From a plasmid: a stretch of DNA of 64,000 nt. The position numbers were made by a program. Below, piece by piece: positions 50,001 to 56,000 of the stretch. Location: sequence record NZ_CP137558.1; one strand, given 5' to 3'. Each line of letters begins with the position of its first letter. Positions within the stretch are counted from its first letter, which is position 1.

Positions 50001-53000
50001 TCCCCATTTGCCTTAAAGGTGATGTATGGGGTAGGGCATTCTTCTGTTTTACCTCCAGTAATATCCCCCGTAGTCCAATCTGCCACGTAGATACCGGAAA
50101 CAGATACCTTGTCCTTACCCACGGTGAGCTGATAGGTATAGCTATTGCCGGCTGTGAGAGCAGGGATGCCGGCGAGCGTTTCTGTTGTTGTTTTGCTTTC
50201 TCCTTCTGCTACATCAAGAGAGAGGAAGGTTGCGGAGTTTTGGGCTTCGCATGGCTTGATAAGGGCATAGAACTTCTTATCGCTGTGCTTAAACGCTTTC
50301 ACACCACAGATGCTGAGGCTATTGACGTTATCAATATTGGCTCCGGCATACTGGTCCTTGAAGCCATCAATCATTACTACCACTCTCGCCATTTTTCGCT
50401 CCATGGTGAGTGTGAGGTTATTGCTATTGTTGGTGTTGGTTTGCGGACCGCTAAACGACATGAAGTCGGCGGCAGCAAGCGATTCTACGCTGGTGTATTC
50501 CGTAGGCTGGGTGATGGTACCATTGAACAAAGAAGGATAGTAGGCGGTGAAATTCATCGTCTCGCTTTCCCATTTCAGGAACTTGCTGCCCTGTGGCTGC
50601 CATTCATTGTTGTTTAACTGATAGGTTACGGCATCCTGGCCATCAGCCTGGACGCTGATCATATCACCATCTTAAATTTCTTCTGCGCTTCGGCATCCCC
50701 CAGCGGAAAGCTGCGGGTGAAGCCATTGGCAGATGCTTTACCTACTTGCGCAGTGATGCGCACAGCGTTAGGGTCGCTGTGGAACGCTGAGAGGAGGTCT
50801 TCTGACTCGGAGCAGGAAGACAGCGCCAGAATCATGGTCATTGCTGCGAGAGCAATCATGTAAAGTTTTGTTCTCATATTCTTTAATTATTTAAATTTTA
50901 GGCTTTTTATTTCCATGGTACAAATATAGCATTTTTTTCCGAAAAACGGTGTCGTGATTTTCGAAAAAGGTGTCTACTTCCTATGTTCAAGGTGTCGCAT
51001 TGGTACCAATGCGACACCCCAATTAACATAAAGATACATATAAATACGTATTTTAGCGCATATATTCAAGGAGCCTCATCCCAGGGCGTATTTTATGGTA
51101 TGTAAAGATAATGCTACAAAAAAATAAGCTTCGCAAATGACTTCCGGTCCCCGAAGGGGGCGAACCACATCCAGTCTTGCTCCTGTTCGCCCCCTTTGGG
51201 GACGATAGAGAGAGTATGTCTGCTATCCGCAGGTTCCATTCCCTTCGGTCATTCCACCCGCGGTTATTCACATTCGCCCCCTTCGGGGACGGTAGAATGC
51301 TACTTGCGAAACTTCTGTAATATAATTCAAGTATATTCCATAATGCTATGCTTTATTATTATCGTTCACAAAGATAATCTTTCTGAACGATAATTCTAAA
51401 TATTTGAGCTACAATTAGTTGCTTGCTATTGTTATTTAACTATTAATCGGGGATTTCATCACCAATCATCTGCGTCATCTGCGGAATCTGCGTGACTTAA
51501 AATCCAAACCAAGAATCTGTGTGAATCTGTGAATTCTGTGGGACAAAGAATAATCTGTGGGACAAAGAATAGGGGATTGTCAAGTATAGTCTTAAAAAAA
51601 GGAGCATTTCAAAACTTGCCATCCAGATGGCGATGAGGCTGGAAATCTGCCCCTTCCTGAGGGCTTGGGCAGCGATTTCGAGGTTGAATGGGCTACGAGT
51701 GTACGGTCGTAAACCTGCGACCGTACAGTTATATAGTGTATGCTCGTACACTCGTAGCGCTACGACCGTACACTTGTAGGGTATTCAACCGTACACTCGT
51801 AGAAAAATGAATGGTTTTCGAATTCTTTACATTCTCCTAACCCATTGATTTGCAGCGAGAAACGAAAATCCTTCATATTTTCGGTATTTCAGATAAAATA
51901 TTTCCCGGCGGAAAATACGGGAATTATGGTACATTTTACTTGAAAATCTGTATACTTTTATTTGCGTTTTCTGTCACCAGACTGCCCCGCAGAAAGGAAG
52001 TTATCAATCAGCACGGCTCTCACAAACAAACGCCTGCATATCGCATAGAAGGCAGGATTCCACCACAGAATACATGTTTTTTTGTTACATTATCGGTTCA
52101 ATTTGGTTCATTTTAGTCCAAACTGCATTTTTTTCTCCTTTATATTTTGCTCATTCAACATTTTTATTTATCTTTGCAGGGATTTAGTAGAAATGTTATC
52201 TTTCAACGAAGATTCCGTTAAAAACTATTATTGTAAGGACTATTATAAATTGTTTATATGATGAATAATAACTACTACAGAGGGAATGTGCTGGTAAGAC
52301 GACTGGTAACATGCATGGATATCGTTATCTTAAACGTTTTGCTGTTTGCCTATACCAAGTATGGTGCAGAATTGGTTCTCGATTATTTTGATGAAGCAAC
52401 GAAGATTACGGCTTTCGTTGCCAATGCTGCCTTACTCCTGAGTGAGTATTATTACTCCACCATCATCCATGTAAGAAAGATCGGTTTCCTGCAGGTATTG
52501 AAGCGTACGCTATACCTGGCTGCATCCACCACCTTCTGGTTCTTTGTCTTCGTAAGACTGCTCAGCCATGGAGGTCAGATGTTCTCTTTTGCATTCATCT
52601 TCGGCATATCATTTTATTTTTTACTGGTTATATCCCGACTCTGCGAACTCTCACTCCTCAAATACTACCGTTCCAAGGGACGCAACAGCCGCACGGTTGT
52701 CTTTGTGGGCAATGACCCGGCAGTGGGAGAGATGTATCGGACGATGACGGAGGATCCTTCGGCTGGTTATATCGTGAAGGGATATTATGCTGATGCCGAT
52801 ATGGCCAAGGCTCCAGAGGGACTGAAAAGGATAGGAACCATGCAGGATCTCAACAATAACATGTCTTCCACCATCAACAATACCATCGATGGTACTCATA
52901 ACGCCATCGACGAGGTGTTCTGCTGCCTGTCGCATACAGAATCCGATCAGATTGTGAAGATTATGCAGTTCTGCAACAAGAACGTGGTTCACTTCTATTT

Positions 53001-56000
53001 CTTGCCTCGCGTTTTCGGCGAATATAAGCTGCATCTCGATGCCCAGAACTTCATGGGCAGGACGGTGTATTCCAACCATAAGGAGCCGCTGGCAAGCATT
53101 TCCAACCGCATCGTGAAGCGAGCTTTCGACATCGTGGTGAGCGGAATTATCTGTCTTTGCGTATTGCCGTTCATCCCGATCATCGCGCTCATCATCAAGA
53201 TTCAGAGTCCGGGTCCTATCTTCTTCAAGCAGGCAAGAACGGGTCGGAACGGTGATACTTTCTACTGTCTGAAGTTCCGTTCCATGCATGTGAACAAGGA
53301 TGCCGACAAGGCGCAGGCTACCAAGGACGACCCAAGAAAGTTTGCCTTCGGCAACTTCATGCGAAAGACGAACATCGATGAGTTCCCTCAGTTTATCAAC
53401 GTGCTGAAGGGCGACATGAGCATCGTGGGTCCTCGTCCTCACATGCTGCATCACACCGAGGTATACGGCAGCCTGATAGACAAATACATGGTTCGCCATT
53501 TCTCCAAGCCTGGTATCACGGGTTGGGCTCAGGTTACGGGATTCCGCGGCGAGACCAAGGAGCTGTGGCAGATGGAAGAGCGTATCCGCCGAGACATCTG
53601 GTATATAGAGAACTGGTCGTTCTGGCTCGACATCAAGATTATCTTCCTCACGGCCAAGAGCATCATCTTCCCGGATAAGAATGCATACTAGTTAAGAATG
53701 CATACCCAATAGAAACAAGTCATACTATACCTTAATTCAAGTTTCGCAAGTAACCTCCGGTCCCCGAAGGGGGCCAACTTTCAATAACCGCTGGTGGAAT
53801 GACCAAAGGTCATGGAACCTGCGGACAACCAATAGTAGGGAGAAAGCGTCCCCAAAGGGGGCGAACCACATCCAGCCTTGCTCCTGTTCGCCCCCTTCGG
53901 GGACGATAAGAGAGTATCTGTAACTATCCGCAGGTTCCATTCCCTTCGGTCATTCCACCCGCGGTTATTCACATTCGCCCCCTTCGGGGACGGTAGAATG
54001 CTACTTGCGAAACTTCAGTACCTTCATTATGTAAGGGCAATTATGGTAAATAGGGTTTAAAGCGCAGAAGTCTGCCGGCATCACTGCCAGCAGACTTCCC
54101 TCTTCATTAATAGAACCTAAAATTACATCTATTTTTCAAGAACGGCTTCTTAATAGGGATAATGCGTAGAGTGGCAGTATGGTAACGTGCCTTACAGCGC
54201 CATCGGCTTGATTGTCAATGTAATCGAATGCGCCGAAATTCTCAAGAGAACAGCGGAAGGCTTCGGTGAGCTTTTTCTCTCTCATGAATAGCCAGAGACT
54301 CTTCATGCCGCCTTGTGTTCCCGATTTGATTTCGATAGGGGTAATCTTCATGTTGTGGATTTCCAGATAGTCTATCTCTGCTACGCTCTTCCCCTTCTTT
54401 TCCCAATAGAACATCTTCTGGCGTTGGATGCATGGTTTGTAGCGCATCATCTCGAGTCCTGCAACCATTTCTGTAAGACCGCCCTTATTGACAAGTTCCT
54501 GTGGGGTGCCGGCTAAAATAAGCTCTATGAGTTGCTGAGACAAGTCACCTTCCAGTTGAAGCACGGCTAACAGTAATCCTGGGTCCAGGAAGAGAACCTT
54601 CATGCTTTTCTCGTCGGCTTCCGCATCCAGCGGAATGCCATTGCCCGAGGTTGCTACAACAGGAGTTACGATTCCTGCAAGTGTCAGTAGGCGCAGAGCT
54701 TCTCTGATTTGTGAACTCTGATAGTCTGCTGATATTTGCCTGTATGTCAGCTTCTCTCCAGCCTGGTGGCAGATGCCACGCATCGTCGTGCGCAGCAAGT
54801 CTGGGTTGACTCTCTTTTTATACTTGCTGAAATCGTCTTCGTATGTTAGTATGATATCTTCCTGGATGTTTCTGCATCGGTTGAAATCGTGCGTCTTGGT
54901 CCATGCAAGTACAGATTCCGGCATGCCTCCAACAAGCAGGTAGGTGCGGAAGTATTCCACGAGTTTGTCATGGAAGGGTTGTTCTATAGAAAGATTCCTG
55001 TATGCTTCATTTCGGATACGGATGAGACCTTCTTCGTGGTTAGCATGCAGGAATTCATCGAAAGTCATTGGATACATGAAGAGAGAATGAATTCTTCCTA
55101 CTCCAAAAGTAGGGAGTTCCTGAAGCGTAAATTCCAGAAGAGATCCTGCTGCAATGACATGTAGTTCCGGATAATCTTCCTTGAAAAATCGTAGTGCCAT
55201 GATAGCTTCCGGGCATTCCTGGATTTCGTCGAGGAAGAGGAGCGTCTTGCCTGCTTCTATAGGGACATTGATATAACTGCTGATTTTTTCAGCAATCAAT
55301 CGCACGTCTATATCCCCCTGAAAGAATGTTTTTATTGCCTTGTTGCGTTCGAAGTTCACTTCAGCGAAATACTTGAATTGTCTTCCGAAATTTTTCACTG
55401 CAGAAGATTTTCCAACCTGTCTGGCCCCACGAAGCAACAGAGGTTTCCGCATGGAATCTTCTTTCCATGCGGTGAGTTCTGAATCTATGTTTCTTTGTAT
55501 GTATTCTGCCATAATTGTAACTGTTTGAATAACAGGTGCAAAAATAGCGAAAATACTCAAATCCGAGAAATAAATTGCGTTAAAATACTCAAATCCGAGA
55601 AATAATCTGCGCTAAAGTACTCAAATCCGAGAAATAATCTGCATTATCCTCTGGTAATATGAGCAGCAAATTAGTAATACGCCATCTCCGTATGTAACAA
55701 AATCTATCCCATTGCAGCGGTGTTTGCCTTGACTTTTGGATAAAAGTTGTATCTTTGCACTGAAAATCAATAAATTACATAAAATGACATATTACAAGCG
55801 AAATATAGATAAAAAACTCATGGAGTGGAAGGCTTCTCAAAGAAGAAAGCCGCTGCTGATACGTGGAGCCAGACAAGTAGGAAAATCTTCTGCTGTGCGC
55901 CACTTGGGTAAAGAATTTAAGTACTTTGTAGAAATCAATCTGGAGAGTCAGCCATCCATAAGAGGACTCTTTTCAAAGGATATTGATGTGCATAGAACGT

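Follow-up and report, generated by a model that had tools for sequence, protein, structure and literature searches.

Palindromic mobile elements of the Segatella copri complex on a plasmid, and their probable partnership with a Y1 transposase

A stretch of 64,000 nucleotides of the plasmid sequence NZ_CP137558.1 (hereafter, the window) contains a gene for a WbaP-type initiating sugar-phosphate transferase (52258-53691, plus strand; Pfam Bac_transf 6.8e-68, CoA_binding_3 6.4e-15), which lies between two copies of a palindromic repeat. A preliminary description of the window had placed two such repeats here in direct orientation, with terminal inverted repeats and made of hairpin modules, and the sequence of the window agrees with it on all these points. 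We show here that the two repeats are members of a single family of mobile elements of the Segatella copri complex, which are non-coding, palindromic and intergenic, and that the transferase gene is a bystander between two of its copies. Below, we describe the two copies and their histories, and discuss which enzyme may mobilize them.

The right copy is the complete form of the element. It occupies 283 bp on the plus strand (53736-54018), with ends reading TTCAAG...CTTCAG and an inner span that extends from AAGTTTCGCAAGTA at 53739 to TACTTGCGAAACTT at 54015. End A (TTCAAGTTTCGCAAGTAACCTCCG) is followed by a module of three hairpins (P1-P2-P3), a central loop of 19 nt (CACATCCAGCCTTGCTCCT, 53867-53885), the mirrored module P3'-P2'-P1', and end B (...GCTACTTGCGAAACTTCAG). 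Arm A, the three-hairpin module at 53739-53866 on the plus strand, matches the covariance model R1 described below with 87.8 bits (E 4.7e-21), and its hairpins are located at 53760-53774 (P1), 53788-53824 (P2) and 53848-53862 (P3; up to 53866 when the GAAC tail is included). Arm B, the inverted module at 53886-54012 on the minus strand, scores 99.5 bits (E 3.6e-24). The right copy is a near-perfect palindrome, and as single-stranded DNA it is predicted to fold into one long hairpin of -95.7 kcal/mol (z = -16.5). It is bordered by an 8-bp target-site duplication (TSD), of which the left copy is TACCTTAA (53728-53735) and the right copy TACCTTCA (54019-54026). The element ends were fixed by comparing many copies, as TTCAAG... 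for end A and ...CTTCAG for end B; the terminal inverted repeats read YTSAAGTTTCGCAAGTA / TACTTGCGAAACTTSAR, and the two ends can be distinguished by the adjoining inner sequence, AAGTAACCTCCGG at end A and AAGTAGCATTCTACC at end B.

The left copy is a short form of 195 bp (51123-51317, plus strand; inner span 51126-51314) that has the same orientation as the right copy and shares 95-99% identity with it over their common part. Its arm B module (51185-51311, minus strand) scores 96.9 bits with R1 (E 1.8e-23), its end A is degenerate (ATAAGCTTCGCAAATGAC), and its flanks are unmatched (TACAAAAA versus TAATATAA), without a TSD. Because one arm is missing, its predicted fold is weaker (z = -5.4). 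The left copy corresponds to the full element minus 88 bp, comprising P1-P2 plus spacer, and this segment is missing exactly between direct copies of the P1 and P3 hairpins. The extra segment that the preliminary description attributed to the right copy does therefore exist, but its size is 88 bp instead of 75, and it consists of one hairpin and one arm bordered by direct hairpin copies. Allowing up to three mismatches, seven occurrences of the hairpin unit GTCCCCGAAGGGGGCGAAC were counted in the window, always within the two copies; none would be expected by chance.

As had been noted before, the transferase gene stands alone. The open reading frames (ORFs) scanned on either side of it correspond to fimbrillin/leucine-rich repeat (LRR) genes, insertion sequence (IS) elements, AAA_14/DUF4143 ATPases, a HU-like gene and SusD, or have no Pfam match, and none of them matched a polysaccharide-synthesis family. 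The four CCGTACACTCGTAG motifs that had been reported upstream of the gene are indeed present at 51682-51802, 456-576 bp before the ATG, together with one inverted copy; the array has 45-nt imperfect inverted arms. The array belongs to this locus alone and is not dispersed, as it was found only in the three orthologous contigs, where its identity is 98-99%. It may serve WbaP as an operator or other regulatory array. Just past the stop codon of the gene, at 53670-53715, there are tandem TAAGAATGCATAC units, two in the window and four in the related locus L149 (loci and contigs fetched for comparison are given L numbers).

Several lines of evidence show that the two copies differ in their histories. 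Firstly, in three other strains (L173, L154 and L149) everything from the fimbrillin gene through the left copy and the 940-bp spacer to WbaP is retained, with 94-100% identity, and the right copy is absent. Their empty site reads ...CATACTA-TACCTT[A/C]A-TTATGTAAGG, with the 8-mer present only once, while the filled site in the window and in L235 has the 8-mer on both sides, both of which read TACCTTCA in L235 (window strand). Since the right copy has its own 8-bp TSD and an empty site in these three strains, we conclude that it is a recent, independent solo insertion between the convergent ends of WbaP and the ATPase gene. Secondly, the left copy is shared by the four WbaP-bearing strains whose sampled sequence extends across it (the window, L149, L154 and L173), with 96-100% identity over the element. 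Contig L377 contains an identical short element with an identical end-A junction to the upstream region of the fimbrillin gene; on its other side, however, lies the 3' end of a Y1 transposase gene, and not the end B/WbaP side. Because L377 joins the same end-A junction to a Y1 gene, the left copy is a recombination junction between copies; it is a short form that is old, fixed and recombinant. A clean empty site for it was not provided by the upstream region of the paralogous fimbrillin gene (42880-43290).

These histories bear on the possibility that the two direct copies mobilized the WbaP segment, or can excise it, as one unit in the manner of a composite transposon or cassette, as the earlier suggestion that the repeats had moved the gene would imply. 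The arrangement may seem to invite such a view: two direct copies, 95-99% identical over their common part, lie about 2.7 kb apart, the left copy is a recombination junction, and the context of WbaP differs among Prevotella, throughout which homologues of 62-98% identity occur beside rmlA/wzc-like genes, within full polysaccharide loci, or alone. However, it is contradicted by the data and we consider it highly improbable, because the right copy has its own TSD and empty alleles in strains that keep the rest of the locus, and because the left copy is recombinant and has no TSD. In addition, the outer flanks of the pair are unrelated and share no duplication, no contig was found in which the WbaP segment was deleted or moved together with both copies, and no element was present beside the WbaP homologues of other Prevotella among the fetched loci. 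The view of the repeats as a recombination scaffold receives some support, for the left copy only, from its lack of a TSD and from the L377 junction to the Y1 gene. A look-up of the exact WbaP sequence of the window returned no record.

The proposal that the repeats are a miniature transposable element, on the other hand, is supported, as copies beyond these two are numerous. A 32-nt arm pattern matched at least 119 human-gut metagenome contigs, as well as four contigs of viral collections. BLAST searches identified at least 176 element intervals in 141 loci, the copies being of 283 or 195 bp, with up to 7 copies in a single assembly; 52 of the 176 intervals touch a locus or contig end, which is to be expected because the repeat breaks assemblies. 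Full-length copies close in sequence were found in Hadza Prevotella genome bins and, with 97.5% identity, in S. copri strain 1A8_2. Plasmid and phage collections contained no BLAST match to the element. The copies have different flanks at each site. At 11 of 36 unique sites the flanks are identical at 8 out of 8 positions within +-1 nt of the ends, for which the chance at a fixed offset is about 0.2%. Furthermore, comparison of at least nine pairs of filled and empty alleles revealed target duplications of 7-8 bp, the targets being varied and AT-rich. For instance, the duplicated sequence is TAGAATTA in L130 (empty in L204), TTATTAA in L175 (empty in L229), (A)TAGATAA in L179 (empty in L173) and TTATTTA in L211 (empty in L196). 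One such target lies unoccupied in the window itself: TTATTCTG is present once at 29903-29910, at the 3' end of a fimbrillin/LRR gene, and also in L173, whereas L139 carries a full element there with TTATTCTG on both sides. The TSDs are established only for the S. copri family, the automated calling of boundaries and duplications being unreliable in other phyla.

The short forms arise from the long one. At three sites, the long and short forms occupy the same position in different samples (L172/L145, L067/L231 and L211/L167), and two types of deletion, of arm A or of arm B, are found, each bordered by direct hairpin repeats. Thus, long forms are shortened to 195 bp at their original site through deletions between direct hairpin repeats. 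The left copy of the window and the short form in L137 have diagnostic substitutions in common and are located at different sites, which indicates that short forms have also spread. Copies of the family also recombine with one another.

The module from which the element is made has a size of about 110 nt. P1 and P3 are G(T/C)CCCC-GAA-GGGGGC hairpins, and P2 is a stem of 7-8 bp around conserved tandem G.A mismatches plus a small C(GAA)G hairpin. We aligned 46 modules from Bacteroidota, Ignavibacteriota, Hydrogenedentes, Lentisphaerota and two uncultured groups (Nitrospirales and BRC1), and built R1 from them. In this alignment 95.8% of the cells are in a standard pair, compared with 86.8% in shuffles, and 82 cells are changed on both sides (22.7 +- 3.3 in shuffles). 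Covarying pairs number 11 out of 20 (7.2 +- 1.2 in shuffles) and include all six pairs of P1 and five of the eight of P2; the covariation score is 0.292, against at most 0.096 for controls with slid partners. Similar modules were read by eye in loci of Verrucomicrobiota and Sumerlaeota, outside the alignment. Altogether, the aligned sequences show that the module is a selected fold conserved across phyla. The second pair of P1 and of P3 can be a U.G wobble; these wobbles, the C(GAA)G triloops and the tandem G.A mismatches conserved in P2 all indicate that the GAA-loop strand is the one that folds. Such a fold would fit recognition of single-stranded DNA or RNA.

A conserved fold could also mean that the element is chiefly a structured RNA or DNA signal selected by the host, such as a terminator, an mRNA stabilizer or a protein-binding site, instead of a mainly selfish mobile element. 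The covariation of the stems across phyla, the conserved G.A mismatches and C(GAA)G loops and the wobbles that point to one functional strand are all compatible with this, as is the fact that copies are often located 0-100 nt from gene ends. Nevertheless, we regard a host signal as improbable. The copies show presence/absence polymorphism among close strains and are flanked by TSDs. All 26 sites with enough flanking sequence are intergenic, and they are distributed over 18 tandem, 4 convergent and 4 divergent gene pairs, without a preference for convergent ends and without orientation bias. No relevant match was obtained with Rfam 15, either at gathering thresholds with the window or at relaxed thresholds with the locus and with seven copies from other phyla. 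Moreover, recognition by the Y1 enzyme encoded next to such modules, described below, would explain the structure equally well. Resemblances to hammerhead ribozymes and integron attC sites were considered and dropped, because core positions misfit and Rfam gave no match.

Other arrangements of the module were also observed. A third, divergent doublet of this type is located in the window at 38095-38343 (38095-38210, plus strand, R1 E 3.9e-9; 38229-38343, minus strand, E 3.1e-8), between the methyltransferase region and an IS; its hairpins are GACCCC-AAC-GGGGTC, its fold has a z of -6.9, and it was detected only by the covariance model. In some uncultured Bacteroidetes/Bacteroidales bins (L029, L044, L108 and L120) the modules form tandem clusters, with six hairpin matches within 600 bp at 6447-7010 of L029, and P2 has long insertions in some copies.

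In several lineages the modules flank a gene. In L055, L100 and L060 (Bacteroidales), two inverted modules tightly enclose an ORF of 148 codons: in L055, P3 ends 11 nt before the ATG and P3' begins right after the stop codon. The enclosed 148-aa protein matches Pfam Y1_Tnp (1.3e-20) and NCBIfam transpos_IS200 (59.1 bits, the cut-off being 55 bits). A Y1 gene with 51% identity is present in the Segatella contigs L156, L207, L127 and L188. In L156 the unit has end B plus one module on its left side, and a module, the loop, an inverted module and end A on its right side, with about 970 bp between the termini; a Bacteroidetes-type promoter, read by eye (TTTG...TATCTTTG), precedes the gene. The termini of this S. 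copri Y1 unit are those of the 283-bp element and, judging from its layout, a deletion between its two directly repeated modules would yield exactly the 283-bp element. Wherever a searched locus had the Y1 gene away from a contig end, R1 placed inverted modules on both of its sides, including in L387-L390 even though their modules lack the 18-mer used for sampling. This layout was seen in L055, L060, L100, L091, L070, L156, L188, those searched of L373-L380, L382-L384 and L387-L390; L385 also has it, cut at the contig end. Most of the dispersed copies are doublets of inverted modules that can pair as a single hairpin (paired plus and minus matches about 135 nt apart). On its left side, the S. 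copri Y1 unit is bordered by about 97 nt that are another dispersed hairpin repeat, ACTTTCCTGGGATTTTGCC...GGCAGATTCCGGGAAA (L374 3665-3761, L130, L183, L204, L206, L218, L243 and L381), and L381 contains tandem arrays of flank, element and flank.

Since the Y1 unit carries the same modules and the same two termini, the elements are probably non-autonomous partners of a Y1-transposase element, that is, REPIN-like dimers of the module of a "REPtron/TIRtron". In the scheme that we propose, the Y1 protein, supplied in trans, would recognize the folded GAA-loop strand of the modules, act on modules and termini, and move the doublets, whose insertions in AT-rich intergenic DNA duplicate 7-8 bp of the target. 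The 283-bp element would be the remnant left when the directly repeated modules of the ~970-bp Y1 unit recombine and the gene is deleted.

Several observations weigh against this partnership. One concerns the TSDs. Y1 (HUH) transposases of the IS200/IS605 type are known to insert without target duplication, duplications of 7-8 bp are the product of DDE transposases, and we know of no description of REPINs that reports a target duplication; the canonical single-strand "peel and paste" pathway gives no account of their origin. Next, a sister family of S. copri has the same termini and other internal hairpins, so that the termini could serve a separate enzyme. The invariance of P3 results only from its use as search pattern. 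Finally, no Y1 gene is present within the window, and no empty site was found for the Y1-bearing unit, whose flanks are themselves repeats.

[quoted passage not shown] In addition to the 7-8-bp AT-rich TSDs and defined inverted termini, which are a DDE signature, this would account for two families with different insides and the same termini, for the presence of the same modules with different termini in other lineages, and for the absence of the left terminus in two of the Y1 contexts (L373/L382 and L380). Against it, neither three viral scans nor the fetched loci, about 2.6 Mb in all, yielded a DDE-encoding element with these termini, or any other transposase-bearing one apart from the Y1 unit. 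Pairs of inverted termini 0.3-5 kb apart were chance matches or the Y1 unit itself; the viral scan with a 16-mer gave about the number of matches calculated for chance, and that with a 19-mer gave one match. The three IS types of the window have ends unrelated to the element termini, and the only gene-bearing unit with both termini among the fetched loci encodes just the Y1 protein. Moreover, the same modules would have to have been captured independently in several lineages. We therefore consider a DDE-driven MITE rather unlikely.

Returning to the Y1 partnership, it is conceivable, if on balance somewhat doubtful, that this group of Y1 enzymes integrates differently from its relatives and thereby produces a TSD. 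More tentatively, the sequence comparisons may be taken to suggest that a Y1 protein of the little-studied subclass 1.2 mobilizes palindromic doublets of its own three-hairpin end-modules through a TSD-making route, and that this pairing of module and enzyme is ancient and extends across Bacteroidota, Ignavibacteriota, Hydrogenedentes, Lentisphaerota, Verrucomicrobiota and related uncultured groups.

The conceptually closest known arrangements are REPIN-RAYT systems and TIRtrons. In the former, which involve repetitive extragenic palindromes (REPs) and REP-associated tyrosine transposases (RAYTs), inverted pairs of the repeat form a long hairpin, many copies are intergenic, and the repeat flanks a Y1 gene (Bertels & Rainey 2011, PMC3116915). 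Similarly, the family described here has inverted doublets, intergenic copies, and inverted repeats flanking a small Y1 (HUH) gene, which in some lineages is present at one conserved locus. Compared with the single-copy, vertically inherited gene that marks REPIN-RAYT systems, the picture is mixed. The Y1 proteins P0231 and P0127, of two other lineages, look RAYT-like because each occurs at a single conserved locus. The S. copri protein, in contrast, looks IS-like because it is found, in identical form, in at least 3-4 contexts and on 576 contigs. There are further differences with REPIN-RAYT systems. First, the protein is not a class-2 RAYT: its motifs, DHIH and YIK(S/N)QKEHH, are signatures of class 1 / subclass 1.2, and chains deposited as RAYT/TnpA-REP did not match it at E < 0.01. 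Second, the repeat unit is a 110-nt three-hairpin module whose hairpins begin with CGTCCCC, whereas a REP has 20-40 nt with an unpaired 5' GT[AG]G head. Third, the family has lineage-specific terminal repeats and 7-8-bp TSDs.

In TIRtrons, the gene of a tyrosine transposase (TIRYT) is flanked by long, partly self-complementary inverted repeats whose dispersed copies are mostly head-to-head dimers; they are known from Proteobacteria, Acidobacteria and others, with other sequences such as the GGGGWSAS motif (Di Nocera et al. 2013, PMC3733652). Judged by this published description, the likeness lies in a Y1 gene with inverted repeats whose copies form a dispersed dimeric family; we found no published TSD, covariation or three-hairpin architecture for TIRtrons. 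The same study describes REPs with an unpaired CGTC tag, a stem of 8-9 bp starting with A/T pairs, a loop of 4-5 nt and a CCA tail (PMC3733652). The module hairpin, C-GTCCCC-GAA-GGGGGC-GAAC, cannot be equated with these, as its GTC is paired, its stem is G+C-rich and has 6 bp, and its loop has 3 nt.

The tentative assignment of the Y1 protein to subclass 1.2 merits some further comments. TnpA-Y1 proteins of this subclass include Bacteroidetes members with a low copy number in some lineages, and the subclass has been listed as being without REPs, generally without terminal structures of the IS200 type, and without IS properties (Quentin et al. 2018, PMC6006769). The Y1 proteins that we identified agree with it in size (148-150 aa), in the DH[IV]H HuH motif and in the Y---Q--HH motif (YIKNQKEHH), and differ in the W motif, which is W[AGS] instead of WQ, in the motif alignment on which the assignment is based. 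Contrary to the published listing, structured modules flank the genes described here and are dispersed in many copies.

The relation with IS200/IS605 elements is twofold. Those elements are known to have ends that are not inverted repeats of each other and to insert, without target duplication, beside a fixed tetra- or pentanucleotide. On the one hand, the family resembles them and the palindrome-associated transposable elements (PATEs) in having a Y1 transposase whose closest solved structures are TnpA of ISDra2 (the best, 7e-11), of Sulfolobus and of IS608, structured sub-terminal hairpins, and short derivatives without a gene. On the other hand, its modules are inverted, and its targets are varied AT-rich 7-8-mers that become duplicated.

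Two repeats of the same host group also deserve mention. The "LRR_5-associated" predicted MITE of S. copri has a size of about 159 bp, is nearly palindromic and multi-copy, and was described with no TSDs seen and no transposase named (SPLASH preprint, 10.1101/2024.01.18.576133). According to its supplementary sequences and the fetched loci, it has the same host and the same terminal sequence, ...TACTTGCGAAA(C/G)TTCAG, and the P1-linker-P2 layout read from the sequences is also the same, while its hairpins differ (GCCCTGAAAGGGC...). It is most readily viewed as a sister family, and is the one referred to above. PINSR is an intergenic repeat of 188 bp from Prevotella intermedia/nigrescens (Naito et al. 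2016, PMC4755523), reported to be without terminal inverted repeats and to occur only in the P. intermedia group. It is comparable in being abundant and intergenic, in its similar size and in belonging to the same broad genus; compared by description only, it was set aside because it reportedly lacks inverted ends.

We found no report in the related literature of the link to subclass 1.2, of a covarying three-hairpin module across phyla, or of the TSDs. Repeats of the REP/REPIN type are among the commonest repeats of bacteria, and to our knowledge how they move has not been demonstrated to date. Here, a single family in a dominant species of the human gut offers insertion polymorphisms that are recent and clean, together with their empty sites, a Y1 enzyme as candidate and a folded module supported by covariation, which makes its movement directly testable. 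TSDs are unexpected for HUH enzymes and, if they are indeed made by the Y1 protein, this would be a new pathway for HUH Y1 enzymes. The association with the modules also gives subclass 1.2 proteins a likely role. At a practical level, the elements interrupt Segatella assemblies made from short reads, serve as markers of strain-level variation, and mediate rearrangements beside fimbrial and surface-polysaccharide genes.

Other features of the window are as follows. A tRNA scan found none in it, and a scan at Rfam gathering thresholds gave nothing relevant. There are three paralogous fimbrillin/LRR genes with internal 78-nt periodic repeats (29903-31675, 41210-42940 and 48908-50877), and the upstream regions of two of them, at 42.7-43.1 kb and 50.7-51.1 kb, are 85-95% identical. 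The paralogue beside the left copy (48908-50877, minus strand) is split into ORFs at 48908-50662 and 50659-50877, where L377 has a 640-aa Mfa-like gene; possibly, it is a pseudogene or contains a sequencing frameshift. With an integrase and Mfa2 nearby, this is a plastic fimbrial region. An IS with a DUF772/DDE transposase (~46872-48899, ends GGCCGTCCGAAAAC...) is a strain-specific insertion, because L111, otherwise 98.8% identical, lacks it. Another IS, with a DDE_Tnp_1/DDE_Tnp_1_4 transposase, is present as two direct copies of about 75% identity (32854-34312 and 38733-40190). Between them, at 34315-36295, lie a gene for an rRNA adenine dimethylase (Erm/KsgA-like, RrnaAD 3.5e-63) and a second methyltransferase gene, a layout that resembles a composite resistance transposon. 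A repeat of about 105 nt, rich in ATCTGCG/ATCTGTG heptads, is located at 51449-51553, 45201-45305 and, inverted, 29460-29515, with full or partial copies in many Segatella contigs. Finally, a 74-nt repeat with a terminator-like hairpin is present at 54068-54141 and, inverted and 92% complementary, at 25869-25942; its first-named copy adjoins the 3' end of the AAA_14/DUF4143 ATPase ORF (54136-55560, minus strand), the last few bases of which it overlaps.

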